Assembly (NCBI GenBank): GCA_024679065.1
Contig: JAGIQG010000014.1
Span: 7,502,001 to 7,566,000, forward strand
DNA: 64,000 nucleotides
Source: Sphyrna mokarran
Lineage: Eukaryota
Direction of reading: 5' to 3'
Of this stretch, positions 14,480 through 61,012 are shown piece after piece. Position numbers and translations under genes: made by a program. Positions within the stretch are counted from its first letter, which is position 1. The number at the start of each line of letters is the position of its first letter. The notes beneath the pieces were generated by a model, which worked only from the letters and a program-made list of their open reading frames with translations, had not been told where the DNA came from and did not search any database.

Positions 14480-15411
14480 CTATTGCCTGAACAGGAAGAC
14501 TAGATTTAATTTTACATATTTTTGCAACATCAGAATCATTGTCCAAGGAGATTTCACGATCTTCTTCAGCTCTTCTCTGAATTTAACTTGTGTAACTGCA
14601 TAAATGCAACTGTTTGTGCATGAACTTAAATGGAGGAGGAAAGCTCCGGTTTCAGTGGCAATATACTCAGGGGATGTATAATCCGGCCGGTTATGAACGA
14701 TTGTACCAGAGACTAAATTACTAATGACTGCTGTCAGCCACAACAGTAGAAAGCTACTAGAAATAGTGAACGATAAAATAATAGACTTCCTTCGGTTCTG
14801 TATCTCTGGATCATTCTGATTCTCACTGCTTTGACCCCGGAGGCCCGCACGGACTTTGCTGGACAACAAAATCCGTCTGATTGTCAAAAAATTAAGTAGT
14901 AATATCGAAATGAAGGGAATCCAGTTCAATAAGATACTTTGTAACCACCTGACTGTCACACCAGTGTGAGAAGTATAAAAATCTTGTTTCGGGAGGACAC
15001 CCCATTGAACACCATTTACTGTACTTCTCTCTTTATATGCAAACCAAACGTACATGTTCTGTAAATAGATAAGGACCGTGGCTGTTGTTAAAACTGCAGC
15101 CGCTGTTCTCGCTGTGCAATAGATTGTTTTAAACTTCTGACTGCATATGGCAATATATCGGTCAAACGTGAATGAGACTGTAAACCATACTGACATATAC
15201 AGGTTATTACAAATCATAAATATCATTAATTTGCAAACAACAGTGTAGGAGAGGAATGAATTTGGAAAACGTTTTCTTAGAAGATTATACAAAATTATAT
15301 TGATGACCATCACCAACAAATCTGCTATTGCCATGGCCACCATGTAGATAGAGACACATCTGGAAAGGCCGCAATTTCCTTTGGCGAGGATCACAATGGT
15401 CACGAAATTCG
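14480..15411 (-). CDS. GPR139/GPR142-like class A GPCR, copy 1, coding exon 2 (gene 17840->14480, 333 aa spliced)
   Basis: 7TM ORF with ADLL (TM2), SVWFTVSFTFDRYIAIC (TM3), WIPF..LLN (TM5), RRKSIIL (TM6) and NSCIYAVTQ.KFREEL (TM7/H8). Acceptor ttctctctcgttcttacAG ends at 15412. Splices in phase 1 to exon 17771-17840 giving ...FGAP-A-NFVTIV; 70+932=1002 nt. Confidence 0.93.
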
Positions 15412-16019
15412 CTGTAAGAACGAGAGAGAAGAACCAAGTAACGGACGCAGTCTGATGACAGTCAAAGCATACTTCAATGAAATGTTTGGGTGCACTTTTA
15501 ATCAGTTAATGTCACGGACTCATTCTGTTGATCATACGAGCAGAGGCGATATATTTACTGAAATAGATCACCATAAACTCAATATTGAGGCACTCAATGC
15601 TTTCCCCATTGCAATAATTTAAGTGTAATCGTTTCCACATGTTGAGGGAAGGGTCGCCGGATTCCGTCGACAGAATGTTAATGGAAAGTTCACCTCAGCA
15701 CCATAGACAACAAAAAAAAACAAGTCTCTAATGAGATCAATTTGATTTCGGAGATTTGAATAAACCAGGTGATCTGGGATCAGCCTCCTTGCATCCATAT
15801 CGATTTAATTACAGTAAGCATCACCCGTGACACTGGTCTGAGACTCCATTCACCCTAAGTCGAAATCACACTTATTCTGCATGCCCTGGGGAAAATCCCC
15901 AGAAAGAAAATTTCGGTTTCCTCAATAAATTGTAGTTTTTCTTTTTCATTTCCTCAGTGAGTGTCACAAGCTCAAACATCTTCAGCTGCTTCATCGTGAC
16001 GTTTCTTCCACTACACGGT

Positions 16020-17012
16020 CAGAAGTGGGAATGATCATTCATGACTCTACAATATATAATATCGCACGCGAATCTTCAGATACCAAGACAGCCCATGTCC
16101 AATTGCAGCAAGATCAGGACAACATCCAAGTTTGGGCTGACAAGTTCCAAATGATGGTTGTGTCACGCACGTTTCAGGCAATGACCGCCTATAACAATAC
16201 ATAATCTAAGCATTTCCCCTCTACATTCGATGCCATCACGGAATCTGCAACTATTAGCATCAACCACAAACACAATCTGAACGGAACGAGCGATATGAAA
16301 ATAAAGTTTAACAAATCTCAGCAGGGCTGGCAGCTTCCGTTGAGGGAGAAAACAGTCATTGTTTTTTTAAGCATTCCCTACGTTTGCTTCAAATCTCAAC
16401 AAATGCTTATTTTAGCGAGTAAATAGCGTCCAGAGCAGCAACTCAACGGTTAGAAATCATGCGATAATTAGCTGACCCCTTGTCTCTCAAAAACCTGTGC
16501 ACTATTTATAAGTTGATGGAGTGATGGAATACTCTCCACTATCCTGCACGAGGGCGGCTCCAAGGATATTCAAAATGCTCCAGACAATGAAGGACGAAGC
16601 AGGCAGTTGGGTTGTTAATCATCCACAAAATGATAACGACCTCAACCGCAGACGCTCTGTAGCAGCGGTGAGCAGCATTTACAGGAACTCACCAGGCACC
16701 TTACACAGAATTATACTAAACTCTCAACCACTACCATTTACAAAGTGACGGGCAGCAGATATATGGGAATAACACCATCTTAACGTTTTCCCAAAGACAG
16801 TGACAAAACTGAGTGGAATATATATCGCCACTCATTCACTGTAGTTGTGCCAAATTCTTGGAACTCTCTTTCCCTCTACCAGCACTGTGGGTGCACTTAT
16901 AACTTGGACCGCAGCGAATCAGGAAGACAGCTCACCACCCTCATCCTAAGGGCAATGAGGAATGACCAATAAAGGACATCGATGCCCACATATCACAAAT
17001 TAATAAAATAAA
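16020..17012 (+). mobile_element. Degenerate CR1/L2-group LINE 3' part in the intron of GPCR copy 1
   Basis: caagatcaggacaacatccaagtttgggctgacaag (DL.NI..WADK), gtgatggaatactctccac (VMEYSP) and a 3' end gctcaccacc...gatgcccacat...aataaaataa. Confidence 0.7.
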
Positions 17013-17770
17013 TGCGACCAAGCAACTGATTCATTTCTATACAGTAATTTCCTTCGCTGCACTTTTGACAACTAAATCCATCTACCACGAGGCTTGTGTC
17101 AGGTGATGCGCCGGATGCACGGTAGAGCAATCGATTGAATTTAGTGTTTTAAATTTACTTGGAGGAGTATCTCAAGAGCTGCATTCGACATGAGGAGTAC
17201 ATATTAGCATTTCAAATAAATCAGTGAGATGACAAAATTGAAATAAATTTTGAAATGGAAATAAGTACGAAACTGATGGATTCTACTTTTTATCACCAGC
17301 GTAAGGGAACTGTCGGGCACAGAACGGGAAATAGCGGAACGGAAAACTGATTTGCATCTTTGAGGAGAGGAGCGGCCTTCTGAATAGTTTTTTTTTTATC
17401 CCTTGAAATAGCATCCAATGATTTCTGCTTTCCACAGAAGCGCATTTCGATGTATTGCCATCTTAAAGTGGTAAGAATACAGATTGTCATTGCAAATAAA
17501 TCGCATACATATCTATGAACTGTTGGAAGGGCAGAGAATCAGGCTCGATCTTCGTAAATGTGGGGAGGGAAGTTAAACTCCCGGTGTCACGTTCTTCTGA
17601 GCTGAACCGCAGCTCAGAGGCCATGCGAACCGTTGAGACTTTCCCTGATATTCAACAATTTAACTCGACAGAGAAAAGGCATTGCAATAATGACCGTCTC
17701 GCAATTAGTTGCTGAATCAGTGAGCAGTGAGATACTCCGCAACTATGAGGCAAATGGTACCTTGACTTAC

Positions 17771-17840
17771 CGGGAGCACCAAAAGCTGCTAGCACAGGAT
17801 AGAAAAGTTCCTTGATCTGAAGAATTAATGGACGGGCCAT
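17771..17840 (-). CDS. GPR139-like GPCR copy 1, coding exon 1 (MARPLILQIKELFYPVLAAFGAP)
   Basis: ATG at 17840; encodes the first half of TM1 (FYPVLAAFGAP); donor GTAAGT at 17770; 70 nt, phase 1. Confidence 0.9.
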
Positions 17841-17909
17841 TATGATATCGAGAAGAATGCAAACGTTTCACTAGATGCACCGTTGCATGTAAGATTCGTA
17901 AATTGTCCC

Positions 17910-18031
17910 CTTTTGTAATGTAATACGTTCCCTGGGGTGAAACATCAGGCTGCTTACGAATTGCAGCAACTTAACGCAAAAGATTCCTTTCCTCTGGTTG
18001 GCCAATCGACACACTGTCAGTTCGTCAATTA
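17910..18031 (-). promoter_or_regulatory. Putative proximal promoter of GPCR copy 1 (degenerate TATA and EBF-type sites)
   Basis: Positional homologue of the copy-2 promoter: TACAAAAG 17910-17917, ACCCCAGGGA 17929-17938, TAATTG 18026-18031. Confidence 0.45.
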
Positions 18032-19789
18032 ACATGTGTGATCAGAAAGGCATCCCAGAGCACATGTGTTCTGCATTGGTCCCAGAATTCAGAATGGAAC
18101 ATCCCAATTGACGCAATGTTTGATTCTGCCAGCTTCATCATGCACTTGTTTAAACGCACGCATTTAATGCGCAGCTTGCATCTATTTCGCTCCTGTTTCC
18201 CTGACTTTTCATTTGATGTGCATTGTGACAATTAGTGATGAATCGACTTTTTTTATTTGTGGCCATTATCTCACTTTCCTGTGTCTTTACTACATTCTGA
18301 ATTGTAGAAACTAAACTACAAATTCACTATGAATATTAATTTATCATTATCAATGCAAACTGTAATTAAATGTGTATGACCTACTGAATCATTACTTGAG
18401 GTGATACTATTTCAGATACTTCCGTGCCAATCCGTGAAACATAGATTAGGCTTGGCATATTTTTTGTCATCCCTCTGACGCATCAGTAAGAAATTGATAC
18501 GAAGCGATTAACACAGCTTGATGGGCACGTTACATTGCTCTAGATGAGTGGCAGCAAGCTACCGCTGGATATTGATCTCAGTGCAGCCGAGCTGCAAAGA
18601 AAATTTCAGAGTGCTTTGAAGCATTTTATTGCCCTCAACTGGAACTTTAGCTATTTGAGATTTCAGTCAATCAATAAGCGATGAAAATAGTTCCTTGCCG
18701 TGTGGACACGATATTTCATCCATTGAAACAGTTTTTGCAGGAGTCTACCCTGACCAATTAGCCAGTATTTAATTGACGAAATGTTTGCTGTCTCTGGACG
18801 AGCAATGCCTCCATTTTAACTCCTGATTCTTAAATTCAAATTCCACATAGCTACGCTACTGTCCATCAATATCATGACTTCCACCCAAAGATTTGCTAAG
18901 CTTTACTATTCTCTTATCTTGGCATTTTGGATACTGCTCGAATTTGGCTTTCGGATTTTCAACTGAATTTATCTAATATTCCAAATCACGAGTTCGTTTC
19001 CCCTTAAGAATCTATAGCAACCTTCATATTTGAGCAGGATTTTTCACGAGAGTTGATGCCTCCTTCTGTGCTCAGAGCCAGTGTTTTTACCATGTTTTCT
19101 ATTGATAAGTCTTTTAGCAAGAAGATTGGAAGGTTGGTTACTTCAATGACGCTTCAAAGACAAGCTGTTCTTGTGAAGAATAATATCTATTACATTTAAC
19201 TTTACTTAGTCGATCCATATGAAGTCACGAATTGGGATCTAGAGTATGCCCTTCAAAGTCTGCTCGTCCATTTAATACGTTTCAGGCTGATCTGGTTCTA
19301 ACTTCAATCCCACTTTCCTCCCAATTTTTGATTATCTTTCACCCCCTTGACGCTCAAGCAAAACATCTTACTATGCTTAAAATTATTAAAAGACACTATT
19401 TGTATTTGGAGACAGAGACTATGAGTGGCGCACGACCAAATGTAAGAGAAACAAAATCTATTCTCAGCCTTCAATTAGCGACCACTTATTTTTAAGCTTG
19501 CACTCCTCGTTCCAGATTTTCTGACAATAAAAAATATCCTCTCCACCTTCACTCATTAATGCTCCTCAGGATGGGAAAGCTTTTGATCAAGTCATCAATT
19601 ACTCTTGTCAATTCTTGTGGATGAAATTTAACCTCTCCAATCTTCCATCATCGAACAATTCAATTATTCCTAGAATTCGTGTAGTCGTCGAATATTCCTT
19701 CAGCAATGAAGAAGATCATTTTCATTTGTCATCCAAGGGTTGTGCTGACCAGTTATTGAGGTCTCTAATGAGCGTGATTTTCGTAGGTT

Positions 19790-22700
19790 CCACTGTAGTG
19801 AGGACAGGAGAATGCGGCTTGCAGGTCGTCGACGGCGGTATTCTTAGGTTTTTTTTTTAACGTGCCTTGATACTATCCATTACCTCACGAATGCGGATGC
19901 AGAGTTGGAAATTACACTCTTCCAGGCTTAGAGGTCCTGGGGAAATGTCTTGCATGATGCATTGTTAATTTTAAAATCCTGAATGATAACTTGCAAGGTG
20001 CCCTTTACACGTTTCGTCTGTGCACCACTGAAGAGTACTCTATTTTTTAGTTCAACACCGAAGATTTGAGAGGGAATCATTGCTCAGGCATTCCGGCGAC
20101 TGCTTCAATTCATCAGAGCAGTTTTTCTAACAACATTGGGAAAATCCTGACCATACCGGGTCTTCCGAGGACCTGTGTGTCTGGGAATTTGCCCTGCGTC
20201 TTGATTTTCTGACGTTTGTTGAGGCAGCAAAGGTAGAAGAGATGAATTTCATTCTGTGTCAGTTGTAGCCCGTCCAGGTCTCATTCTTGCAAAGAAGAAT
20301 GGAGATTGGGGTTGTTCAGTTGACATTGAACACGGCACTTCGCCTCACCCCTCAATTTCCGGTAAAGAGCAGCAACGATTTGGTAATTCTGGCCTTGGGC
20401 TCGCCATCCATCAGAACATAACGTGTGGAAGTGCTGCACATTTGGATGAACTTGTCCACAGGTCGCAACCTCTGTTTGTCTACTCTCAGTGCTAGCTCTT
20501 CATTGAGATTTACTTGGAGCAGATTGAAACATGACTTACGTCTTCTTTATACTGATGGCAAGACCGAACTTATTGCATGGAGCAGATCAATTATGCATTG
20601 CTCACTGAAAGCATTTAGTGCACAGTCGCCAGCAAATTCAAATTCATGTAATCTATCGTTGAGGAATTTCGTCTTGGTGGCGTCGCAAATTGAAAATCTG
20701 GTTGTTTGTTCCATAGCTGATTTCTATGCCTAATCCTTAGCCTCGATGGCATCAGTGCGGAGGGGTTAAGAACATGATGTTCAAGATAACCAGTGCCAGT
20801 ATGCAGCACTATTACACTCCATTGATGACAGTAAACAGGGCCAAAATCACATTGTCAAGGAGGAGGCGGGCCTGTATGCCATATTGCAACCATTGAATCA
20901 TCGGGTTGAGATTGTCTCGAAACCCAAACTTCTTTATAATCATCCAGAGCCCTTCGCTGCTGACAATTTCGAAGGCTTCGCTAGATGGATGAATTTGGGG
21001 CATTGTTCGGCATTTTGTTTTGGGCATTTCTCCTGCATTTGGCGAGCAACACACACCATGCCGATGGCTTCAATTCTGTTTTCTTTTACTCACACTGGCT
21101 CTCCGGAAAGAAGCCCTGCTCAAGTCAGTCGGTTTAGAAGCATTCTGGCAAAGTCCTTTCCGGAAATAGACGGTGCATATAATTAGTTGTGTTTGTCACA
21201 GGACTGGAGATTGACTTTATTTTTGCAGATGTGAGCAAAGAAGCAGTCATTGAAGTATTGTGGAAGATCCCTTTCCCCCCCATGTGAACTTCAGAGATGT
21301 GTGTACTTTGTGAGCCTGTATGATGCACCATATCTATAGATTTCTGCTGGAATTTGATCGGCTTCAGGAACTTTGTCATTTGACAATTACATCAAGCAGT
21401 GTCGATGGAGTGCCGAGATAAACGGTGGGATTAACCTGGGGATGTTTACTTTACTTCATTAATATGGGACAGTCAATTGAGGACATTATCGAGGGCTCAC
21501 CCGTCTGTAACATCAGAAATTACGTTGTGAGTACTGTCGACTCTAAAACACTGAATAGCGGAGAACAATTGTCTGGGTGAGCCCTAAGGAACATCTTGAC
21601 AGATTCGTAGCGGTGCCTCATGTAATTTTTGCCAACTCAGACTTACGTTTCATCTGTCTTTTGTCTCAGCCACTTGCCCTTCATCTCATGTAGTCTGCCT
21701 TGCAGTGTGCTACGAATGGGGTTACAAACAGTTACTATGTCTCCCAATGTTTCATTTCGTTTCATTAAGGCATTCTTTGTATTTTTGCTTCGAAAGGATG
21801 CCGGATTTCAGGGCCATTTTCATCAAAACATTCCTGATTCTTTCCCTCTGTGTGACCCAGTAACCGTTAAGCTGTGGCGTACACAGTGTCCCATCAGAAA
21901 CACCGAAGTCCCTCGATCTTGTCTCCGGGTTTCTGAAGGTCACTTGGCCTCCTTCGACCATCAGTGAACTGCAGTTGGATGTGTTCGATCTTTAAACTTG
22001 AGATTTTCAGTCGTTCGGTGATCGTATTCCCTTGAGGACGTTACTTTAACTGAATCTTCAGGCATGCTTTGGAGGTAACAGTGCTCAATCCAACAGTCGG
22101 TGCCGCATAGGGTCCGAATCATCTTTAGGTCCTGACCTTTTGCAGTTCATGAGGTTCCAAAAGCCATCTTTTGCGTCGACGATTTCAGGATGTCTGAATT
22201 TGGCATGGGAGCCAGAAAACTGTGCTGGTGAGATGAAGTTCATGCTCAGCGTTAAATTGCAAGCGTGACAGTCCATTGCTGTTGCTTTTGCCAAATGCGT
22301 TTTCAGGACGACACCTCCCCAAGTTTGGTTATCTGTGCTGACTCTGGCATTAAAGTTACCAATTTTTGTTCAGCTTGTCGATGTCGCTATAATCAGGAAG
22401 TCAGCAAGTGACTTCACAGAACTCAATATATATAGTTTTTACTGTTTTGCTTCCTGTCAGCCATTGTGATCTTGCAAGATATGAGACAGCCATTTAAACT
22501 CTCTTGAAGGCTGATCAACGTGTTCACCATTTCATGATTTTTTTTTGCACAAAACCCCCATCGGCCTCGGTCCTGTCCTCTTTGGGTGAACAGTTCCAGA
22601 ACGAAGTGCATCCAACCCCTCTTTCCCTGAATTGAAATTCCTCTGCCAGGCACATTCTGCTAAGTGCGGCAATGCCAACTTTAATTCGGCATGGGCCTCT

Positions 22701-22990
22701 GCCCTGGAGGTCAGTTTTTCTGTTTTATCAGCTTGGCTGTTGGCCAAGAGGATGCGTACATTCCTTGCACCAAAAGTGAGATTTATCACATTTGTTTTCT
22801 TCCTCTTTTTGATATTGCTGCCGTTAAAGAGGTAAGTACTCCAAAGCGGCTTCTGTAATTTAGGTATTTTTTGGGAGGGACACTCTTCCTATCTCGTACC
22901 TCGGACGTTTTTTTGCGCAGTGCTGTCTTTAAAATGGCTCTTCAGTCTTTCAACGCATTCAACGCTGCTTCGCTTCAGTGACAGATCACC
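19790..22990 (-). mobile_element. Near full-length (~3.2 kb) degenerate RTE (BovB-like) LINE
   Basis: APE endonuclease start LTFGARNVRILL (22789); RT segment GLWMIIKKFG...GIQARLLLDN...FTVINGV (21054-20812); C-terminal KR.K.TL-like motif near 20000; many stops and frameshifts. Confidence 0.82.
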
Positions 22991-23152
22991 CCATGGCCTG
23001 AGCCACCTATATGCAGATTCACAGCTCCATTTAGAGTGTGTCACTCAAGCTGTTTTGTCCCTTATTCCACGCATTTGAGATTTGGATGATAGAAATATGG
23101 AGAGAATTTGATTTTAAGTAAGGGACAGTTGACTCACTCGCTACTCGTGTAT

Positions 23153-23794
23153 TGCGAGAGAATAAAATCTCACAAAAAATTGTAATTACGTATATTCTTA
23201 CGAGAACTTTTAAGTAAGGTCCGTATGATAAAATGTGACGAGATCAGCATGTTAATCGATAATAGCTAATGTGATCAAAGTATGTTGACCAATGTGATAG
23301 AATCAGTATGGTAATCACTTATAATCAATGGATGTAAGCAGTAACAGCCTCGGGAAATAATGGTTGTTGATCAGTTACTCAGCTTAAATATGATCATGAA
23401 GGGTAGAATGAAGTAAATATGTTCTCTTTATCATTCGGTTAGGCTAGCTAAGCCACAATTGTTATATAAGCAGAATGAATTGGGCAAGGACAGATTGTAA
23501 CTATCATGGTTTCACTGTATCAAATAGTGACCAATCCGAAACGAAGCAGATAACCAATAGCTCAGCAAAAATAGCGGTTAAAGAAATCCAACCTTGAGAA
23601 TGAGATAAGGGTCTCGGGGTATGTAACTACAGCAAATATAAAAAGACTGTAAGCGAGCAGTTCGTTGGATTGCTCCGTACATCCCGTCTCTATTCTCTTG
23701 CACTGAAGAATGAAATCTTTTTACCTGGGAGATCAAGGCTCAGACTCTCATTTGATCAGCTAAAAGTTCGTTGTCATCCTGGGGAAGCACGACA
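23153..23794 (+). mobile_element. Solo LTR (642 bp, TG...CA, 4-bp TSD GTAT)
   Basis: Absent at the paralogous site (2744 gtatccagcac); GTAT at 23149-23152 and 23795-23798; CCAAT boxes near 23532 and 23554; TATAAAAAG near 23637. Confidence 0.85.
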
Positions 23795-24044
23795 GTATCC
23801 AGTGGCAGCACTGAATCCAGATGGCTGGATTTAAGCAGGGCGCACTAGGTGATCTCCTTGTGTCTCGTTTTGCTCATCGTGCTCCATAATACTTTGATGA
23901 TTCTGCCTTTCATTCTGCTGAATGTGCTAGTGTTTCTTCCACGCAGTCAGTAAGATTTCTCACATTCAGGTAGGCTAGCCAAGTCTCACTGATGACGTCA
24001 GCACACCCGTTACTCTCAACTGTTTTATCTCCCTCGCAGAAGTA

Positions 24045-24250
24045 ATTTACCGTGCTGTGGAAGCAGCCGCCTTGGATTCCTGGCCTGGGTCACTGTATAT
24101 GCGCGCTCTGCCCGTTCTTCCCGTCTCTTCGTGGGTTTCCTCTGACTTTATGGGCTTGTTCGCACTGTCAGAAGTTCGTGCTGGTTTGCTGCTTTAACGA
24201 TGCTAATTTCTCCTTCAGATTACCCGCATAGGTACTGGAATATGACAGCT
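24045..24250 (+). mobile_element. Degenerate HE1-type SINE (duplicate of 2990-3190)
   Basis: ggattcctggcctgggtcactgt...cccgtctc...gtgggtttcctc core. Confidence 0.55.
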
Positions 24251-25887
24251 TGGGAATTTTTATAGCCACTTCATTGCGGTGCAAATGTTACCCGACGTAT
24301 GACACAAATACATAAACATAGCTTAATCTTAATTTCAACAGCCACTTGGAGCCTTAGTTGAGAGATGAGTGCCATATGGTGTCTGGAGCGTGCGAACTGC
24401 TCCAAGAAGAGCGCAGCACGTTCCCTGACATGGACCTTTCTCCTGTCACCCCTTACACTACAAAATACAATTAGAGTACTTTACCATCTCTGAACTGCTT
24501 CTAAAATGTTCGCACTTTCTTTGATAAAGAGGGCAATTCTCTTGCATTTTGTGATTTGAACAATTGAGAAATATACAGAATGATCTTCCTTGTCTCCACG
24601 CTGCCACAACAAGCACTATATATAAAGAAAAACATTTTCCTAGTCTCAGAATCAATTTCCATGTCGCTGTGGATTTCCATTTCTTTAGGGCAGAAGAAGA
24701 AGGAACAGGAGTACGCAATTCAACCCCTCTAACATACTGTGCCATTCCATACAATAAGAATTAATCTATCGCACTCTTAACTACACTTTCCTGACGGTTC
24801 ACCAAAAACCTTCAACTTTATTAATAATAACAATAGCTGTCTCCTGCTTAAATATACTCGATGGCCCGCTATCCACCCCATTGTTGTGCAGTGAATTCTA
24901 CAGATTCACAATCCTTTGAGAAGGATAATTGCACCTCACCTTTGCTTAATGTTTGCTACCCTTTATCTAAGAGTAAGACCTTTCGTTTTAGACTGTCTCT
25001 TCGTTGGAAGTTTGCTTTCCACCTCTACGTTGCAAATTTCTAATGCTGATGTGCGCCATAGAAAGATAATGAGTTACAGAGACATGACGTACAAGTTTTC
25101 AATCATGGTATCATGGCCTTATGTTGCATCTGAACTGACATTCAGAACTAAAACACCCCAGATTTGTCCCTGCACATGGCCCGTGAAAGAAATAAAATGG
25201 TTACATTGGTTCATTTCACAGGACTGAGGAAATTGTTAAAGCACCTTGATGACAATTGACTTTTTGTGCAATATTGAAAGACATACATCGGGTAAAATCC
25301 TGTCATTGCAGACTGCTACAAAAAAGGCTGACTCTAAGTTCGCCACTCAGAACATTAAGGTGTACGTTATTTATGAGAACCCGAGCAAAAATACGATAAT
25401 CATGCAACAAAGAAGAGAATTTCGAAGAGAACACAAAAGCACAGTTGACAAAAGTATGCAAATTCGTCGCTGCTGAACTGCTTTAATGTTTTACTTTTAA
25501 CTTTGGAAAAGTATGCTTGTAATTGCTGAATTGAAATCGACATGTATCTCATTTGAGGATGCCAGAGGAATGTTGTGTATTGAGGTCTGTATCTTGAAGT
25601 AACATATGTAAAACTTATTGATTAGCAACCAGAGGGAAAACTCAGTTAGTTACACCTCTGAAACACTGGACAATGTGTTACTGAATAAGCCAGTCCTTCA
25701 GAAGACATGGTTTATTTAAATCTGCAATTCAACATAAAGGAACAATGATGGTGACAGTGGGGCTTGAGAGTTTTTTTTTGGAGTTTGGGACGAGTGTAGG
25801 GGCTGGGGGAGTTGTAAGGGAAGAGGAGTGAATGATTGGAGCCTGCAGGAGGTTGCAGTTGTCTGCTCAAAGGGGATGGGGAGTGTG

Positions 25888-25891
<4 letters not shown>

Positions 25892-25930
<39 letters not shown>
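25892..25930. repeat. (TG)n microsatellite
   Basis: About 19 perfect TG units; only gtgtg at the paralogous site near 6223. Confidence 0.97.
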
Positions 25931-25931
<1 letters not shown>

Positions 25932-27539
25932 GGGGGTGGGGATAGTGGAGAGGCCTTCAGCCTCAGGGATGCAGGTCTGGTCGTTGTTGACCAGCAGAAT
26001 GCAGGTGCCCGTTCCGGTGGCTTTTCCCTAGGCTCTGGGAGTACTCCTAGTGTATGCCCAGGCTTCTTGGGTGTTTTTCTGTCTCTGGAAGCCGCTCTGG
26101 AGGAATCCCCGGCCCTGAGGATGCAACGCCCGCTGCTGCTCACTTGTGGGCAGCTGCTCCGCGTCACTTCCAGACGGGAGTCTCCAGGGCACTAAGAATC
26201 GTCAATCATAATAAAATGCATTCGAGCATTATTAGAGACTTTTAAAAAATTAGAATCAAGTTTGTGAAGCACAGAAGAAGAGTAGAAGGAAGACTAGAAA
26301 GATTATCTTGGAAGACAGATAGAGTATGGGACGCTCTATTTTAAAAGAGGTTGTCTGCTAATCCTCGCACTCGCCCTCGATGCAGTATCCGTCATGGTCA
26401 TTGATGAATAAAAGTGGCTACTATTCGCTACTTATTCTGGAAAGGTGAACGAAGAAGGATATCAAAACAGAAAAAAAGAAAAATAAGCAAGATTTAGGGT
26501 AGTTCTGTTTGCAGTTGACATTGTGGCATTGTAATCCCGAGATAGCAATCCAGACACCGCTCGTATGGTGTGGATTCTTGGGGAGAACACCTTCATATTG
26601 TGGAATTTGAAAACGATATTTTTTTCAAAAAATGTGTGATGACCATGAATGGATTGTCGTAAATACTTTCCAGTTCACGTATCCCATTAGAGAAGTGAAC
26701 ATGATATCCTCATCTGTTGTGAAGTTCTTTCCAACCCATCGCAATCTAGTAGATTGTTATTTTTTTTTGTCTCCGGGACGATACGAGAGGAACAGTAAAT
26801 TATATCGAGGCCAGCCCCGATCCCAGTAATGGATAAAGCGTGTTGCCCTTAGTCTTTTTAATGAACCTTCGTGTGTATATAACACGAGACTCTAACTGTT
26901 GGGTTTGTTGTATGTGCTCATCTCTTCCTGATATTAATGATTTTTTTTATTATTTTTGCAGCGATGTTGCCTACATGACAGCATATTTTTGAGCAGAAGT
27001 TTAGGGCATCATCATACAAATTACATATTGGTTGCTTCATGTCTCCATCAGTAATTATATACGCACAACGTTTGTGGAATTCATCCAGTAGGCAACATTA
27101 AACTGAATGCATTCATTAACTTTCTGGCAAGCAATTCCAAATGGATGGATCCAAGTTGTTTGACTGGTATCTGTCCTGCATTTCCCCTTTCATTGCTGCA
27201 GCTGCCAAAGTATATAATAAATTACCTGCTGCTCAGTAATGTAAAGATACAGCAATCTCCTGGAGGAAGCCATGAATCAACTGGTTAAACTGCACATTTT
27301 CACATTCTCTAGATTCTGAATAGAAATCAGAGCCATGCATGTTGACGAATTCTGAACTGGTGATTTCATCTGAGACAAATTGGAACATAATAGATAAGCA
27401 CACAGTACTTGGATGAACATGGCGTTTGGAGGGGGATGACAATGAATGGAAAGATCAAAGGGATTTTAAACTCTGTCATTTAGCATTAAACTAGGGGGTC
27501 GCATGAAACATTCGGTGGCACTTGCCGTGTACATTAACA

Positions 27540-28445
27540 TTTATGGTGTGAGGCTGCCTATGGTCAAATGCGACTGATGTAGAGTAAGGCACCAAATCTT
27601 TGTTACAAAACAACTATGGTGTAAGTTAGCACCACCACGATAGAGCAGTATCTGTTGTAACGCAATTCCTGAATTTAAGAGGAAACGATAGAGTACGGTA
27701 AAACGTACGGTGTGATGCTTTACCTGTGGTGTGAGGCATAACAGTGTACGAAACACTTGTTACTTAAGGCGGATCCAACATTGTCAGAAGATTACTGTGG
27801 TTTAAGGCAGAACATGTTGTGTAAGATAGTAATTGTGGTGTAAGGCAGCACCTCTAATGTAAGACACTACCTATATTGCAAAACGGTACCTGTGTCATTC
27901 GTCATTTTTTGTTGTGTAAGGCACTATGCGCGGTGCAAGGCAGCATTTTTGTCGTGAGACAGTACCAGCTTTGTAAACGTGTGGTATAATGTAGAACCTG
28001 CAATGAAAGACGCTTTCCGCAGTGAGGGCAATTCTTGTGGAGAAGTGCAATATCTTGGGTGAAAACATTTTCCGCGGTCTAAGGTCCTTTGTTGTAACAC
28101 AACAACTACGGTGTAAGGCAGTCCTTGCGGTTTAAAGTGGTACCTGTGTTATAACCCAGCTCAGAAGTTTCAAGGTATTGTGTGAAATCAGCCAGCACCA
28201 GTGAAGGCAGTGTCCACGTTGGAAGGCACCAGCTCCGCTGTAAACCAATAGTTGTAGTGTAAGGACATGTGGATAGTGCAACACAATACCTCTGGAGCAA
28301 TCAGTACCTGCGGTGTAAAGAAGCTCCAGTGGTGTAAGATGGAACTTATGATGTAAGGAAGTAGCTTCGATGTAAGAGAGCACTTATTGTGTAACAGCAA
28401 CTGCAGTGCAAGGTATTACTTGCGTTTTCCTGAAGCACCTGTGTT
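27540..28445 (+). repeat. Degenerate 19-bp tandem satellite in unit B (further short block 29310-29510)
   Basis: gtggtgtaaggcagcacct, cggtgtaaggcagtcctt and similar variants. Confidence 0.8.
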
Positions 28446-29511
28446 AGAATGCATGCCAGAAATTTCAATGTGTTTAATGAAGTCGGCCTGAAACGTGCGT
28501 TTTGTACATTGAATTTGGCGCAGGTAAGCTTAAAATATTTGACTCCAGGTATGACTTAAATGAACTGCTGCTGAGCTTGTCCCATAAAGTAAATTTCAGA
28601 ATATAGTTAACACATAGAAAGAAAAGTAGCAAAATGAATTTTAGCAATTACAAACCAGAAACAACCAATGTATTATATAAACCTTAACAGCTCAGCACAT
28701 CATGCGTACTAGCATACGCCACTAGTTTCGATTTAGCACAAAAATTATGTATGCCCAATGAGTTTTCAGCTCTGTAAGGCCTGTCGTTGTTCGTTCTTTA
28801 GATGGAGAAAAGAAACACTTGCTTCTCCATTCTGGAACTCCCAACACCTCGAAGTGGAGATAGTGCCGCTGCTTTCCTTCAGCTTGCAAACTATCAACAG
28901 CAAAGCGTTCACTCCAGAAAAGTAAGAAATATTATTTCAAACTAGCCAGCAGAATTTTAAATAGAACAGAGGGGCAAAATAGTGCACCCAGCCTCGAGTC
29001 TAAGCAACTTCGAAATAAAAACAACCAAAACTAAAAGTGAAAGAATCTTGCGAAGGAAAATAAAAGACATCTCTTTCCCTTTGACCGATAACCGTTGTCC
29101 CGCAGCAATTCCAAATTTCCAATAACTCCAAAAGAGTGTTTTAGGTCCAGATTGAAAATAAACACAACACAAATTAATCATTTAAGGACCAATTAAATTA
29201 CATTAATCAGACGGCTCGGTGCCTGTTTATTATTGCAGAAAACACGATTAAACATACATATCTTAAACATAGTAGCCTCACCGCTGCAGTGTCATTCGTT
29301 ACTTGAGGTCAAAAGCAGTACCTGTTGCAAAGTGGTATCTGTAGTGTAACATGGATTTATTTTTTGGTTAAAGGTACCGCCTGTAAGACAGTAACCGCGA
29401 TGTAAAGGATTATCTGAGTCTAAGGCAGAAGTTTTGGGGCTATGCAGTGCTTGGAGTGTAGGGCGACAACTGTGCTGTAAGGGCAGTAACTATGATGTCA
29501 GGAAGTAGGCA

Positions 29512-29650
29512 AGATGTGGAGATGCCGGCGTTGGACTGGTTTAAACACAGTAAGAAGTCTCACAATACCAAGTTAAAGTCCAATATGTTTTTTTTTAGTA
29601 GTAAAGGACTCTAGCATTTGAGGCTCTGCCTCTTTGTCAGTTGAGTTCAC
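29512..29650. mobile_element. Penelope-type pseudo-LTR fragment
   Basis: atgtggagatgccggcgttggactgg...agtaagaagtctcacaataccaagttaaagtccaa; same family as 57060-57190 and 59605-59780. Confidence 0.65.
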
Positions 29651-29774
29651 CAATGATTCTGCAGTAGCGTCAGAAGATAGAACAAAGAGTGGAATAATGC
29701 TTCTGATGTCGTTTATTTAAAGACACCGTTATATTGTTTGTGTCAGGGAGGCCAGCATTCAAACGTGTACTTCA

Positions 29775-30706
29775 CTATTGCCTGAATATGGAGACTAGAT
29801 TTAATTTTACATAGTTTTGCAACATCAGAATTATTCTCCAAGGAGATATCACGACCTTCTGCAGCTCTTCCCTGAATTTAGCTTGTGTAACTGCATAAAT
29901 ACATGTGTTTGTGCATGAACTTAAATGCACGAGCATTGTTCCGGTTTCAATGGCGATATATTCATTAGATGTATAATCCGGCCGGATCTGAGCGACCATC
30001 CCACTGACTAAATAACTAACGACTCTTGTCAGCCACAACAATAGAAAGCTACTAGAAATAGTGAACAATAAAATAATAGACTTCCTTCGGTTCTGTATCT
30101 CTGGATCATTCCGATTCTCACTGCTTTGAGCCCGGAGGCCCGCACGGGTTTTGCTGGACAACAAAATCCGTCTGATTGTCAAAAAATTAAATAGCACTAT
30201 CAAAGTGAATGGAATCCATGTCAGTAAGATACTCTGTAACCAGCTGAATGCCATACCAGTGTGAGAGGAATAAAAATCTTGGTTGGGGATGACACCCCAT
30301 TGAACACCGTTTATTGTGCTTTTATGTTCATATGCAAACCAAGTGTAAGAGTTGTGTAAATAGATAAGGACTGTAACTGTTATTAAAACTGCAGCCGCTG
30401 TTCTCGCTGTGCAATACGTTGTTTTAAACTTCTGACTGCATATAGCAATATATCGGTCAAACGTGAATGAAACTGTAAACCATACTGACATACACAGGTT
30501 ATTACAAAGCATATATATCATTAATTTGCAAACAACAGTGTAGGAGAGGAATGAATTAGGAAAACGTTTTCTCAGAACGTTATACAAAATTACATTGACG
30601 AGCATTACTAACAAATCTGCTGCTGCCATGGCCACCATGTAGATAGAGACACATCTGGAAAGACCGCAATTTTCTTTGGCGAGGATCACGATGGTCACGA
30701 GATTCA
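29775..30706 (-). CDS. GPR139/GPR142-like class A GPCR, copy 2, coding exon 2 (gene 33160->29775, 333 aa spliced)
   Basis: 7TM ORF, about 81% amino-acid identical to copy 1 by manual alignment; DRY motif; acceptor tctcgttctgacAG ends at 30707; 70+932=1002 nt. Confidence 0.93.
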
Positions 30707-31309
30707 CTGTCAGAACGAGAGAGAAGAGACAAGTAATGGAAATAGTCTGGTAACACTCAAAGTATACGTTAGTGAAATGTTTGGGTACACTTTTGCTCAG
30801 TTATTGGCACGGAGACATTCTATTGAACAAGCGAACAGAGGTGATATATTTATTGAAATAGACACCATAAACTCAATATTTAGGCACTCAATGCTTTCCC
30901 CATTGCAAACATTTAAGTGTAATGTTTCCACATGTCGAGGGAAGGGTCGCCCGATTCCGTCTATAGAATGTTAATGCAAAGTTCCCCTCAGCACCATCGA
31001 CAACAACAAAAAAAACGAGTCTCAAATGAGATCAATTATGATTTCGGAGGATTGAATAAACCTAGTGATCTGTGATCAACCTCCTTGCATCCGTATCGAT
31101 TTAATTACAGTAAGCATCACCCTGACATTGGGTCTGAGACTGCATTCACCCTAAGTCGAAATCACACTCATTCTGCATGCCCCGAGGGAAATCCTCAGAA
31201 AGGAAATTTCGGCTTCCTCAATAAATTGTAGTTTTTTTTTCATTTCCTCAGTTAGTGTCCCAGGCTCAAACATCTTCAGCTGCTTCATCGTGACCTTTCT
31301 TCCACTACA

Positions 31310-32315
31310 AGGTCAGAAGTGGGAATGATCATTCATGATTCCACAATATATAATATCACATGTGAATCCTCAGATACCAAGACAGCCCGTGTCCAATTAC
31401 AACAAGTTCTGGACAACATCCAGGTTCGGACTGACAACTGACAAATAATGGCTGCGTCACACAAGTTTCAGGGAATGACCCCCTACAACAATAATAATCT
31501 AAACTTTTCCCCCTCGACATTCGAAACCATCACTGAGTCTGCAACTATAAGCTTCAACCATTAGCACAATCTGAACTGAATGAGTGATATGAAAATAAAG
31601 TTTAACAACACTCAGCAGGGCTGGCAGCTTCCGTTGGGGGAGAAAACAGAAATTTTTCTTTCTAGCTTTCCCTGCGTTTGCTCCTGATTCCAGCATCCAC
31701 TGTATTTTGCTTATTTTAGCAAGTAAATATCGTCCACAAGATCAGATCAGCGTTTAGAAATCTTGAGGTGATTAATTGACTTCTTGTCTCCCAAAATCCG
31801 GTGTACTACTTATATGTTGATGGAGTGATGGAATACTCTCCATTTTCTTGCACGAGGCAGCTCCAAAGACACTCAAGATGCTCTAGACAATGCAGGACGA
31901 AACAAACGGTTGGAATGCTAACGCGTCCACAAAATGTTAATTACCTCTACCGCAGATGCCCTGTAGCAGCCTTGAGCAGCATTTGCAGGAAATCACCAGG
32001 CACCTTACACAGCATTATACAAAACCCTCGACTAACACCATCCAGAAAGTCACGGGTAGCAGATATATGGGGACGCTGCCATCTTAATGTTCTCTCAGTC
32101 GTCAACCAAACTGAGTGGAAATTTATAGCCGTTCCTTCACTGCAGTTGTGCCAAAATCTTGGAACTCTCTTTCCCTCTACCAGCAGTGTGGGTGCACTTA
32201 TAACTTGGACCGTAGTGAATCAGGAAGACAGCTCACCACCCTCATCCTGAGGGCAACGAGGAATGAACAATAAGTACATCGGCGCAGACATCTCACAAAT
32301 GAGTAAAATAAATGC
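31310..32315 (+). mobile_element. Duplicate CR1/L2-group LINE fragment in the intron of GPCR copy 2
   Basis: Colinear with 16020-17012. Confidence 0.7.
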
Positions 32316-33090
32316 AACCAAGCAAATGTTTCATTTCTATATAGTAATTCCCTGTGCTGCCGTTTTGACAATTAAAACCATCTGCCACGAGGCTTGTGTC
32401 ATTTGATGCATCGGCCAATTGTGTAAGTGAGCGCGGTGGCACGGTGGGACAATCGATTGAATTTAGTGTATTAAGTTTACTTGAAGAGGGGGTATCTCAA
32501 GAACGGCATCCCATATCAGGGATACCCAATAGTATTTCAAATAAATCAGAGAGATGACAACAATAGCTATAGAAATAAATACAAGACTGTGGGATTCTAT
32601 TGTTTATCATCAGCGTAAGGGAACTGTCGGGTACAGAAAGAGAAATAGCGGGACGGGAAAACTAAATTGCATCCGTGAGGGGAAGAGCAACCTCCTGAAT
32701 AGTTATTTTTTCCCCCATGAAATATATTCGAATGATTTTTATACTTTCCGGAGATGCTGCATTTCAAGCTGTTGTCATCTTAAAGGGGTAAATATACAGA
32801 TTGTCATTGCAAATGAATCGCATACAGACCTATGAACTGTTGGAAGGGCGGAGAATCAGCCTCGATCTCCGTAAATGTGGGAAGGGAATTTAAACTCCAA
32901 GTGCCACAATATTCTGAGCTGAACCGCGGCTCACAGGCCATGCGAACATTTGAGACTCTCACTGCTATTCAACAATTTATCTCGGCAGAAAGAAAAAACA
33001 ATGCAATAATGACCTTTTCGCATTCGGTTGCTGAATCAGTGAGCAGTGAGATATTCCGCAACTATGAAGCAAAATGGTACATTCACTTAC

Positions 33091-33160
33091 CGGGAGCACC
33101 AAAAGCTGCCAGCACTGGATAGAAAATTCCCTTGATCTGTAGAATTAATGGGAGGGCCAT
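33091..33160 (-). CDS. GPR139-like GPCR copy 2, coding exon 1 (MALPLILQIKGIFYPVLAAFGAP)
   Basis: ATG at 33160, donor GTAAGT at 33090, 70 nt, homologous to 17771-17840. Confidence 0.9.
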
Positions 33161-33228
33161 TGTGATTTCGAAAAGAATGCAAACGTTTCACTAGATGCAC
33201 TGTTTTATGTAAGATTCGTAAGTTCTCC

Positions 33229-33364
33229 CTTTTATACGGTAATATGTTCCCTGGGGAGAAAGTTGCGTCAGTTTCACCAACTTAACTTAAAAGGTCCCTT
33301 CCCTCTGGAGGGAATGCTGGTTGGCCAATCGACACACTGTCTGTCCATGAAGCTCCGTCAATTA
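33229..33364 (-). promoter_or_regulatory. Putative proximal promoter of GPCR copy 2 (TATA, EBF-type site, TGACGCAA, CCAAT, TAATTG)
   Basis: Minus-strand TATAAAAG 33229-33236, TCCCCAGGGA 33248-33257, TGACGCAA 33263-33270 and TAATTG 33359-33364; plus-strand CCAAT near 33325; 70-200 bp upstream of the ATG. Confidence 0.55.
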
Positions 33365-35043
33365 ACATAAGTGATCAGAAAAGAGTCCCGAGCACGTGCG
33401 TTCTACGCTGTTTCCCAGAGGATAGAATTGAACATCCACATTGACACAATGTTTGATTCTGCCAACTTCATCATGCACTTATTTAAAAGCACGCATTTAA
33501 TGCACAGCTTAAATTAATTTCGCTCCTGTTTCCCTAACTTTTCAGTTGATGTGCACTGTGATACTTAATGATGAATCGACGTTTTTATTTGTGACAATTA
33601 TCTTACTTTCGTGTGTCTTTACTACAGTCTGAATTATAGGAACTAAACTACAAATTTACCACTAGTGTTAATTTTCCATTAACAATGCTAGCCTAACTTA
33701 AATATGCATGACCTACTGAATCATTACCTGAGATGATGCTATCTCACAGTGCCCCGTGACAATCCGTGAAATATAGATTAAGTTTGATATCATTCTTTGT
33801 CATCCGTCTGACCCACCAGTAAAAAATTGAGACCCAGCGCTTGACATAGCTTGATGGACAAGTTGCATCGCTCTGAACGAGTGACAGCAAGCTACTGCTG
33901 GTGATTGATCTCAGCGCAGCCGAGCTGCAAAGAACATTATAAAATGCTTTGCATGATTTTATTGACCTCAGCTGAAACTTTACCTATTTGAGATTTCAAT
34001 CCATCAACAAGCCATGAAAATATTTCCTTGCCGTGTGGACACGATATTTCATCCAATGAAACTTTTTGCATGAGTCTTCCCTGACTACTTGGCCAGTATC
34101 TAATTTGACCAAATGTTTATCATCCCTGGACGAGCAATGCCTCCATTTTAACTCCTGATTCTTAAATTCAAATCCCTCGTGGCTACGCTGTTTCCCATCT
34201 CAATCATGAATTCCATCCAAAGATTTGCTAAGCTTTACTATTCTCATATTCTTGCAGTTTGGACATTGCTCGAATTTGATGTCTGGGATTTCAACTGAAT
34301 TGGTCTAATCGTCTAAATCACCAGTTTCATTTCCCCCTAAAGAATCTAAAGCAATCCTTCATATTTGAACAAGATTTTGTCGCGAGAGCTGATGTCTCCT
34401 TCCATAGTCAGAGTCAGTGTTTTTGCCATGTATTGACAACTCTCTTAACAAGGAAGTTGGAAATTTGGTTACTTTAGGGATCTGGAGTATGCCCTTCAAA
34501 GTCTGCTCGGCCATTTAATAAGTTTCGGGCTGATCTGCTTGTAACTACCATTCCATATTTCTTCCAACTCCTGATACATTTCACTCCCTTGATAATCAAG
34601 AAAATGTCTCTCTCTGCTTTAAGATTATTCAGAGAGTCTCTTTGGATTTGGGGAAAGAAACTATGAGTGACACACGACCAAATGGGAGGGAGGAACAAAA
34701 TCTCATCACGGCCTTCAACACTTACTTTACACTTGCTTTAAGTGAACACTTACTTTAAGCTTGCATTCCTCGTTCCAGATTTGCTTACAAGAAGCAAATT
34801 CCTCCCCACCTTCACTCGATAATGCCCCTCAGAGTGTGGAAGCTTTTGATCAAGTCATCCATTACTCGACTGAATTCTTGTGAGTTCAAAGTTAACTTTC
34901 CAATCTTCTATCATGGAACAAGCCAATTATTCCTTGAACTCGTGCATTCGACGACCATTCCTTTACCACTGAAAAAGATCATTTTTATTTGTCTCCAGGC
35001 GTTATGCTAACCGTATGTGAAAGTCTCTAATGAACTTGATCTT

Positions 35044-40129: not shown

Positions 40130-41031
40130 TTAACTTAGTGGCAATCATCATTCTGTCCAATGGAAAATGCGGCCTGTCCAGATGTACAACGTGCTACCTG
40201 TTGTCAATGGCCACAGCGGATCTACTGGTCATTATTGCTGAGGTTTTGCTCTACCGTATCAATGATTATTATTTCCCACTGAATTTCCTCAATATTACGC
40301 CTGTGTGTAGTGTTCGCTATGTCCTGCTCCGTGCAGGCACAGACTGTTCTGTCTGGTTCACTGTCGCTTTCACTTTTGATAGATTTGTTGCCGTTTGTTG
40401 CCAAAGGCTAACATCAAAATATTGCACCAAGAAAACTGCGTGCATAATTCTAGGAACAACCGGGACTCTGTTGTGCTTAAAAAATATTCCCATCTATTTT
40501 AGATTTAAACCGAAAGTGATTGTTGACAATGTACCATGGATCTGTTCCAATAAGCGAAGCTACTTCACTGACCCTAGATGGATTGGGTTTAGAACTTTTG
40601 AAAAGATTTTAAACCCGTTGATACCATTCGGGTTAATTCTGTTGCTCAACGCTCTGACTGTCAGACACATTTTAGTGGCCAGTCGAGTCCGCAAGGGATT
40701 AAGAGGTCAGAAAATGGCAGATAATTGCAATGATCCAGAGATGGAGAGCAGGAGGAAATCTATAGTTTTGCTGTTCACCATATCCGGTAACTTTATAATT
40801 CTGTGGTTGTTGTACGTTTTATATTTCTTTAATATTGCAAATGGTTTAGATGATCTTTCAAAATATATATTTGAAAACATTGTATATATGCTGCGCAATG
40901 TAAGTTGTTGCACAAACACATTTATTTATGTAGCAACTCAGTCGAAATTCAGAGAGCGGTTAAAAGAAGCAGTGAAGTATCCTGCTACATCAATTATTAA
41001 GATAATTAATAAAAACAAGAAATGGAAGTAA
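40130..41031 (+). CDS. GPR139/GPR142-like class A GPCR, copy 3, coding exon 2 (gene 37069->41031, 322 aa spliced)
   Basis: 7TM ORF with MATADLL, SVWFTVAFTFDRFVAVC, PFGLILLLN, DPEMESRRKSIVLLF and NTFIYVATQSKFRE. Polypyrimidine tract and cAG end at 40129; 67+902=969 nt. The ORF-track N-terminus 39979-40129 is intronic. Confidence 0.93.
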
Positions 41032-59470: not shown

Positions 59471-59604
59471 ATCTTTCAGATGGGAAATTAATCCATTTTG
59501 TTATTAATTAATCAGTGATAGCAACGTAAGTTAAAATGTTTTTGTTTTATTTTGGAGATACCAGCGAATAAAATGCGGAAGCCTATATGCCATGCAAAAT
59601 TACA

Positions 59605-59780
59605 TTAAGAAGTCTCAACATCAGGTTAAAAACGAACAGGTTTATTTGGTATCACACTGTTCCGGAGCGCTGCTCACTTATAAGATGAGTCACACAATCA
59701 GGCCTGTTGGATTTTAACCTCGTGTTGTGAGATTTCTTACTGTGCCCACCCAGTCCAACTCCGACATCTCCATATCAATG
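59605..59780. mobile_element. Penelope-type inverted pseudo-LTR (palindromic) remnant just downstream of GPCR copy 4
   Basis: Arms aagaagtctcaacatcaggttaaaaacgaacagg and cctgttggattttaacctcgtgttgtgagatttctt are imperfect reverse complements. Confidence 0.7.
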
Positions 59781-59891
59781 CAAAGTTATAAAGGCAATCT
59801 ACACAGAGGTGATACTTTTCAAAAAAAAACTGCTGTCGAAGTCTCAGCTTGATTGTGAGTTAAAGTGAATGTTAATACTTTTACTGGTGTG

Positions 59892-60808
59892 CTATGCCAC
59901 ATTTCTTCCGTTACTGACAAATCTCAGAATCAGTGCACAGGGAAATGTAAACATCTTCTTCAACTCTTCCCGGAATTTCGTTTGGGTCGCTGCATAGATA
60001 AACGTGTTTGGGCAAGAACTCAGAAACTTCAACATAGTTCCAGCTTCTGTGGCGATATATCCTGGGTTTGAACGGTCACCTTTGTACGAATTGATATTAA
60101 CCAATCCGGAAGTAATAAAACTTACGACACCCGTCAACCACAACAGTAAAAAACTGCCCGATACACTGAAGAGTAGAATTATGGATAGCCTACGGCTCTG
60201 TATCTCTGGATCTGAGTTTTTCTTTGTCGTTTGAGACCAGAGTTCTTTTCGGGCTCTACTTACCAATATAATACGTCTGATTGTCAATGAATTAAGCAAA
60301 ATAATTAAAGTAAAGGGAAGCCAGACTAACCAAACTGAATGAAATAATAAGAACACCGCACTGACAGGTGAAGAAAAGAAAGCGACTCTTGAGCGACAAC
60401 CCCAGTGCACTTTGTTAATTATTTTTTCATGTTCAAATGCTAAAAGAAATGGGATATTTTTAAATGAGGTCAGAACAGAGAACAGTGTTATAACCACGCA
60501 TGCAATTCTCTGAGTGCAATGTTTTGCTTTAAAATTCTGGCAACAGATCATTGCAAATCGATCAAATGTGAAGACAGTGAACCAAACTGACAAATCAAGT
60601 GCAACAGCAGTTAGGTACAGGATTAAAGTACACACACGAGTGTGATAGAGAAATGAAAATGGAAAGTTATTACTTAAAATATGATACATCATTACATTAA
60701 TAACCATAACCAGTAGATCTGCTGTTGCCATGGCCAACATGATTGAAGAGATACATTTTGAAAGGCCACAATTTCCTCGGCAAATTATCACAATGGTCAC
60801 CAAATTAG
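59892..60808 (-). CDS. GPR139/GPR142-like class A GPCR, copy 4, coding exon 2 (gene 61012->59892, 328 aa spliced)
   Basis: 7TM ORF with MATADLL, DRF, LPFTLIILLN, DPEIQSRR and NTFIYAATQTKFREEL; acceptor tccttctttcAG ends at 60809; 70+917=987 nt. Confidence 0.9.
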
Positions 60809-60942
60809 CTGAAAGAAGGAAATAGGAAATGAAGAATATTCGAGAGTTCGTTTCACAAATATGAAGACTTATATTATCCTACAAAGTATTAAAAATGAGA
60901 CAGTGAAAATCAATTTGAAGCAAATAAATTACACTAGCTCAC

Positions 60943-61012
60943 CGGGTAGACCTATAGCTGCCAAGATTGGATAGTAAATCGCCTTAATCAACAAAATAAC
61001 TGGTTTTCCCAT
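60943..61012 (-). CDS. GPR139-like GPCR copy 4, coding exon 1 (MGKPVILLIKAIYYPILAAIGLP)
   Basis: ATG at 61012, donor GTGAG at 60942, 70 nt; intron only 134 bp. Confidence 0.9.

Follow-up and report, generated by a model that had tools for sequence, protein, structure and literature searches.

A large shark and ray family of GPR139-like receptors with features of a chemoreceptor repertoire

GPR139 is activated by tryptophan and phenylalanine through residues F3.33, H5.42, W6.48 and N7.39 (PMC5430874). Near GPR139 and GPR142 lie GPR210A, GPR210B and a third, unnamed set, described without shark data (Rinne et al. 2019, PMC6504862), and an 'Orphan 139-like' row is listed by Furlong and Seong (PMC5207463). 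In nematodes, the srw chemoreceptors derive from rhodopsin-family peptide receptors (PMC3963977). The mean number of known olfactory receptor genes in cartilaginous fishes is 43.8, lower than in any other vertebrate group (PMC10869828), and their large noses have been taken to serve sensitivity and not discrimination (PMC10869828, PMC10116579). Here we describe a shark and ray family of GPR139-like receptors, four of whose genes (g1 to g4) lie in a 64,000-nucleotide stretch of the Sphyrna mokarran genome (the window; contig JAGIQG010000014.1, positions 7,502,001 to 7,566,000). Judged from its sequences, that is from scale, turnover, the pattern of the predicted pocket and the promoter, the balance tips towards the family being a chemoreceptor repertoire, most likely an olfactory one.

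Six-frame translation of window positions 14480-61012 (46.5 kb) gives four two-exon genes for G-protein-coupled receptors (GPCRs) of class A, three on the minus strand and one on the plus strand. Each has an exon 1 of 67-70 nt that ends in GxP plus one base at a GT donor, and an exon 2 that begins with A/V-N after an AG acceptor; the introns are GT-AG and phase-1, with lengths of 2359, 2384, 2994 and 134 nt in g1 to g4. On the minus strand lie g1 (coding exon 1 at 17771..17840, 23 codons plus 1 nt with a phase-1 GT donor; exon 2 at 14480..15411), g2 (33091..33160 and 29775..30706) and g4 (60943..61012 and 59892..60808); g3, whose subfamily is scattered across many contigs, is on the plus strand (37069..37135 and 40130..41031). 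The spliced models encode 333, 333, 322 and 328 residues with no internal stops. The genes carry DRY in g1 and g2 and DRF in g3 and g4, and in place of NPxxY they read NSCIY, NTCIY, NTFIY and NTFIY respectively. g1 and g2 are 81% identical and the other pairs 43-52%.

The first-pass annotation of this DNA had described four intact paralogues within 47 kb, in both orientations, with very short N-termini, a phase-1 intron in TM1 (GxP|A/V-N), DRY/DRF and N(S/T)(C/F)IY. Each of these features is present in g1 to g4 and all four genes are open. The word 'intact' is doubtful for g4, because one codon has been lost in transmembrane helix (TM) 3 (TTC TTC to TTC, at about 60567-60575, in frame) and the protein, alone of the four, has no Pfam 7tm_1 match at E<=1e-3. 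Across the family's 121 distinct open sequences of exon 2, no other length change of this kind is seen. g4 may be a defective gene, or the loss may be either a genuine allele or an error of the consensus. Pfam matched the window proteins to 7tm_1 only, and to no family profile of the odorant receptor (OR), TAAR, V1R, V2R or T2R type. An AlphaFold model of g2 exon 2, built from an 88-row alignment, has seven helices, a hairpin in extracellular loop 2 (ECL2) and helix 8 (mean predicted local distance difference test score 89.8). All 500 of 500 Foldseek matches to this model had E<=0.001 and those listed are class A receptors; the ranking did not discriminate among them, GPR139 being 18th among similar scores. 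With seven predicted helices, D2.50, D-R-Y/F, helix 8 and the 7tm_1 match, the family is assigned to the rhodopsin-like class A.

The four genes belong to a very large set. Protein searches of the 2.77 Gb genome with three window queries gave 2,445, 2,455 and 2,319 candidates at first look; scoring covered just 128, 131 and 130 of these, and all were strong. Three independent exact motif patterns matched the genome 857, 783 and 998 times, and their controls 6, 0 and 0 times. In the listed range common to the patterns, 68/97 matches in the first intracellular loop (ICL1) and 14/31 and 23/31 matches in TM3 overlapped, from which we estimate 1,222-1,898 loci (scaled union 1,131-1,358); these figures rest on the first 100 matches listed per pattern, extrapolated from one part of the genome, and include some assembly copies. 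The genome-wide count called for by the first-pass annotation thus comes to an estimated 1,200-1,900 loci, far beyond the window's four. Exon 2 was open in 77/90 loci picked by the search, and in 54/60 further loci; these 60 include 20 loci picked by motif alone, of which 14/20 were open and the other six broken or not modellable. The 133 open exon-2 sequences reduce to 121 distinct ones. By coordinates, four of the 12 repeats are one place fetched twice, and of the 129 places sampled about 8 match another letter for letter. Among the 121 there are 47 members less than 70% identical to one another, which rules out a pure assembly artefact. Of the clusters sampled, many are found a few Mb or less from a contig end, though not all. 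A fair reading of these data is that distinct intact genes number between several hundred and about a thousand. The family multiplies by tandem and segmental duplication and loses members by pseudogenisation; it is large and clustered and undergoes birth and death, as chemoreceptor repertoires do.

In a homologue search with g1, the best 120 of 433 matches were all from sharks or rays, and 112/120 were named as GPR139. A search for longer homologues of g3, aimed at reaching relatives outside sharks and rays, likewise gave only sharks and rays among the best 120 of 662; in both sets most names are automatic ones reading 'probable GPR139'. Chimaera sequences were absent from the matches listed. 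These results and the motif counts bear out the lineage-restricted birth-and-death expansion proposed in the first-pass annotation. Only two places in the genome carry the GPR139-type motif of TM7, and they correspond to the shark's own GPR139-like and GPR142-like exons (L061, L062). GPR139 and GPR142 resemble the family in intron phase and W6.48 and are the source of its database label, but each has one locus elsewhere, is 20-25% identical to the family and differs in the ligand residues. Relatives were found with shark GPR139 against representatives at 50% identity and then rescored with a profile of the family, which pointed to coelacanth, lamprey and two amphioxus proteins. Profile scores were 165-213 bits for a group containing the coelacanth protein XP_005988539 and the shark's own locus L168 (clade A), 87-107 bits for invertebrate rows and 53-75 bits for GPR139/142. 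The label 'GPR139/142-like' is therefore a loose one: GPR139 and GPR142 were the only matches in a PDB sequence search at E<=1e-5 (7vug, 9m42; E 6e-10), but their profile scores fall well below those of the single-copy group. The intron in TM1 gives no evidence of orthology to GPR139, since the same phase-1 acceptor is found in the family, GPR139, GPR142 and both single-copy relatives.

We built a tree of 71 rows (22 of 56 open sequences, 2 further loci, the 4 window genes, 10 other shark or ray sequences and 33 relatives). The family forms one clade on a long stem, with a Shimodaira-Hasegawa-like approximate likelihood ratio test (SH-aLRT) value of 100, and both of its main subclades contain sharks and rays. 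By this tree the family is monophyletic, of sharks and rays, and distinct from GPR139, GPR142 and the invertebrate rows. In the best tree its sister is clade A (SH-aLRT 91). The approximately unbiased (AU) test did not reject a clade of the family with GPR139/142 (p 0.475), and the sister relationship therefore rests on profile scores and shared motifs. Profile scores and best tree thus favour placing the family nearer to clade A and to a second group, clade B (the shark's own L169, lamprey and bichir), than to GPR139/142. One-to-one orthology with a conserved receptor, which by the first-pass annotation would have refuted its proposal of a sensory family, is excluded by the tree and by the separate loci: GPR139 and GPR142 orthology by L061 and L062, the distinct clade and the low profile scores, and clade A orthology by L168, which is 63% identical to the coelacanth gene when the family loci are 28-36% identical to it.

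We infer that clades A and B are the GPR210 sets of Rinne et al. They share with the family the phase-1 TM1 intron and have similar motifs in ICL1 (C-x-L/I-S-K) and at the end of TM7 (T-Q-x-K/R-F-R), but clade A appears to be single-copy, has a conserved pocket and lacks the composite promoter described below. L168 (G000:C805:46.80 Mb) and L169 (G000:C1104:25.01 Mb) are two conserved GPR139-like orphan genes. The clade A gene is apparently single-copy in sharks, sturgeon, teleosts, amphibians, turtles and squamates; the L168 type is thus kept from sharks to reptiles, and no bird or mammal orthologue was among the 120 matches listed. Its predicted pocket is fixed at E2.61, R6.51, Q6.55 and D7.36, which suggests a conserved ligand. 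Two database models of the L168 type are fused to the name TMEM183A, a hint at the neighbouring gene. Expansions of invertebrate FMRFamide-receptor-like proteins offer another parallel. The Atlas neighbours of a shark homologue, taken in place of a window protein, include such clusters with PF10324 (Srw); the invertebrate rows lie outside the family in the tree and score 87-107 bits, and the FMRFamide-receptor-like and srw expansions are independent of it.

The predicted binding pocket was defined by 34 positions in generic numbering, mapped by alignment. We compared the 47 paralogues less than 70% identical with 45 single-copy orthologues whose overall divergence is similar (0.56 and 0.49). 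Mean pairwise identity in the family was 0.33 in the pocket vs 0.57 in the rest of the TM helices; in the single-copy orthologues it was 0.71 vs 0.65, and none of 20,000 permutations reached this contrast. For ICL1-3 and helix 8, conservation is higher in the family than among the single-copy orthologues. The ratio of nonsynonymous to synonymous substitution (dN/dS), from Nei-Gojobori counts for region-wide classes over 36 disjoint pairs after near-identical and saturated pairs were dropped, was 0.36 overall, 0.48 in the pocket (95% confidence interval 0.39-0.59), 0.56 in outer loops, 0.28 in other TM positions and 0.31 in inner loops. These are functional genes under purifying selection with a loosely constrained outer face; the overall value rules out that all members are pseudogenes. 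A predicted ligand pocket that varies above a conserved transducer face is the pattern expected of a chemoreceptor repertoire.

The predicted pocket has polar residues at D3.37 (35/47), D/H5.42 (37/47) and E/Q7.36 (35/47). The GPR139 ligand residues E3.32, F3.33, R6.51 and N7.39 are not kept in the family. At the site for tryptophan and phenylalanine (H5.42 being 5x43 and N7.39 being 7x38; PMC5430874), F3.33 is found in 5/47 paralogues, H5.42 in 14/47 and W6.48 in 43/47, and asparagine at 7.39 is outside the five commonest residues. Since most GPR139 ligand residues have been lost and only W6.48 is generally kept, sensing of tryptophan and phenylalanine cannot be transferred to the family.

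Exon 1 was located for 63 genes, 59 of which had 500 bp upstream; the 31 less than 70% identical were analysed against motifs that included the EBF (O/E) consensus. In 20/31 promoters (1.7 expected) a strict TATA box falls in a single 50-bp bin that spans 100-50 bp ahead of the ATG. An EBF-like site (<=2 mismatches) stands ahead of this box in 10/20 cases, mostly 11-13 bp away, and at 2/99 background TATA sites. The composite of TATA box and EBF-like site is present in 24/31 divergent promoters and 9/644 background windows. All four window genes have it: g1 (17912..17938, minus strand; EBF/O-E-like 17929-17938 with 1 mismatch, TATA-like 17912-17917), g2 (33231..33257, minus strand; exact EBF consensus at 33248-33257, 11 bp before TATAAA at 33231-33236), g3 (36955..36981, plus strand; EBF-like site and TATA-like box) and g4 (61092..61120, minus strand; TATAAA and a weak EBF-like site with 3 mismatches). 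It is absent at the single-copy L168 and L169, the latter of which may have a non-coding first exon. A forkhead-like site near -150 (bin -200 to -150) is found in 17/31 promoters vs 2.9 expected. Homeodomain-like motifs are weak (TAATGA and CTAATT in 7/31 each in one bin, 1.2 expected each), and TAATTA shows no enrichment across -400..-1 (p 0.17). In the mouse, enrichment for O/E, homeodomain and TATA sites is a feature of odorant receptor promoters (PMC3247239). From the same genome we took 23 V2R first exons, 15 after removal of near copies: EBF-like sites occur in 11/15 (shuffle mean 5.8, 0/200 shuffles) and TATA boxes in 9/15. About 35 V2R-type (NCD3G) loci are clustered at G000:C882:3.46-3.63, 7.05-7.56, 8.16-8.45 and 39.9-40.3 Mb, a count that agrees with published shark repertoire sizes, and many of them have a TATA box 36-82 bp before the ATG.

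The family resembles OR, TAAR, V1R and V2R genes in its clusters, birth and death, short N-terminus, variable predicted pocket and promoter with O/E-like site and TATA box. It differs in having a coding intron in TM1 and in its sequence membership, which is 7tm_1 only. Pocket variation and the promoter lend indirect support to the sensory role suggested in the first-pass annotation. We propose that the family began, before the split of sharks and rays, as duplicates in the lineage of a GPR139-like gene of GPR210 type that is apparently single-copy. In sensory neurons the common promoter of each gene would respond to an EBF (O/E) factor, with expression probably sparse. The receptors would differ in the polar, water-borne ligands that they bind; our best guess is amino acids, small peptides or amines, since D3.37, D/H5.42 and E/Q7.36 would make the pocket polar and in many cases acidic. 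Through its conserved inner face the whole family would use a single G protein, whose signal would probably enter the Go/TRPC2 pathway. In the catshark nearly all olfactory neurons are Go- and TRPC2-positive, and the putative V2R co-receptor v2r1 labels 5.94 neurons per mm, with six other probes at 0.45-2.76 (PMC10116579). These densities suggest that many neurons would be left without a known receptor. It may be, at a little short of an even chance, that sharks and rays smell mainly through this further, independently evolved olfactory family, roughly a thousand genes strong, which would descend from a GPR139-like orphan and have sparse expression in microvillous neurons; the view that theirs is the smallest repertoire would then be wrong by more than 10-fold.

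Several points weigh against an olfactory chemoreceptor repertoire. The pocket positions come from generic numbering and alignment rather than from measured contacts. In no region class did dN/dS exceed 1 over the 36 pairs, which rules out region-wide positive selection; relaxed constraint is therefore as good an account of the pocket pattern as adaptive tuning. The V2R promoters have no fixed spacing between EBF-like site and TATA box (0/9), carry the forkhead-like site at about -150 in 3/15 vs 18/31 in the family, and at <=1 mismatch their EBF enrichment is not significant (2/15; 22/200 shuffles). Their likeness to the family promoters, in a comparison made with olfactory-type (V2R) promoters only, is mild and not specific support, and the family promoters, being homologous, are not independent draws. 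EBF and forkhead factors are active in B cells and in many neurons too. Syed et al. explain the shark nose by V2Rs alone. Finally, the 50 most specific genes of a catshark brain-plus-olfactory library include no GPCR (PMC11979771); the known V2Rs likewise fall outside those 50, and the main text of that atlas does not name GPR139 (PMC11979771).

The most serious competitor, though an unlikely one, is a repertoire of immune or barrier sensors, similar to formyl peptide receptors or MRGPRs, which would detect microbial or damage peptides in leukocytes or in cells of skin, gill or gut. A variable outer face, a fixed inner face and birth-and-death turnover would suit immune receptors too, the closest solved folds are peptide receptors, and EBF-like together with forkhead-like sites (the latter in 17/31 promoters vs 2.9 expected) resemble the regulatory logic of B cells. 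However, the ceiling on dN/dS noted above applies here as well, more than 1,000 loci is far above the sizes known for immune GPCR families, and shark V2R promoters have similar loose EBF-like sites and TATA boxes.

Non-olfactory chemosensation, in taste buds, solitary chemosensory cells or gut endocrine cells, would continue the nutrient sensing of the GPR139/142 group. The response of GPR139 to tryptophan and phenylalanine (PMC5430874), W6.48 in 43/47 members and a polar residue at 5.42 in most of them would fit, as would the roughly four known taste receptor genes of cartilaginous fishes (PMC10869828). Yet the surveyed taste repertoires have at most 268 genes (PMC10869828), a thousand-gene scale fits olfactory families, and E3.32, F3.33, R6.51 and N7.39 are lost; we regard this explanation as improbable, more so than the immune one. 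About as improbable is a reading in which the copy number of an endogenous receptor for a neuropeptide or hormone drifted, mostly non-adaptively, in regions prone to duplication, with assembly duplicates swelling the total. This reading would account for the clusters near contig ends, the letter-identical places, the 6/20 motif-picked loci broken or not modellable and a 45-kb block present three times, and has a parallel in a snail FMRFamide-receptor-like expansion linked to reproduction (PMC11589774), but is opposed by the dN/dS of 0.36 over 36 pairs, the 47 divergent members among 121, subclades common to sharks and rays, the conserved promoter, and pocket positions that diverge specifically in the family while the single-copy relative holds them fixed.

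That block carries g1 and g2. Window positions 1..35148 are a tandem segmental duplication of two units of about 20 kb, 72-84% identical to each other, which ends at a 100-N gap. The 45-kb block is 99.956% identical to C446:6605896-6651000 and 98.1-99.3% identical to C446:6558149-6603287, which likewise ends at a gap. The assembly thus holds three copies on the same contig, two of them ending at N gaps. An assembly duplication is probable, with a very recent true duplication as the alternative, so the assembly may display g1 and g2 repeatedly. Decayed retrotransposon fragments lie at 37350-37931, 46661-51633, 53597-53907 and 56593-56964. They resemble LINE-type and Penelope-type reverse transcriptases; Pfam gave no match for four of these retrotransposon-like frames.

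Some features differ among members. g1 has a valine in place of the ECL2 cysteine (residue 162 in g1 and g2). This cysteine is replaced, with C3.25 kept, in 28/121 distinct sequences belonging to two recently expanded subfamilies (g1, g2, L001-L030, L151-L156, L158), whose frames stay open; the usual disulfide between TM3 and ECL2 is predicted to be missing there. g3 runs two codons beyond its closest paralogues (41023-41031), with a tryptophan codon where they stop. First-intron length is typical of the subfamily, being 103-195 nt in the g4 group (L078-L089, L101) and 2.8 to over 5 kb, where found, in the g3-like group (L108-L127).

In the literature searched we found no prior description of this shark and ray family; most subscription papers were beyond reach, and absence from print is unproven. 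GPR139 names do not occur in the searched supplements of PMC8455134 (12 of 24 files), PMC10115646 (without file 1) and PMC13188829 (8 files), and sharks are not mentioned in the accessible parts of PMC12208981 or PMC12294341. More than 1,000 receptor loci under selection stand under an automatic GPR139 label. Were they to act in immunity or the gut, they would still be among the largest vertebrate GPCR families left unstudied. If they are nasal, the picture of a small shark repertoire would be overturned and a new origin of vertebrate olfactory receptors would be added.

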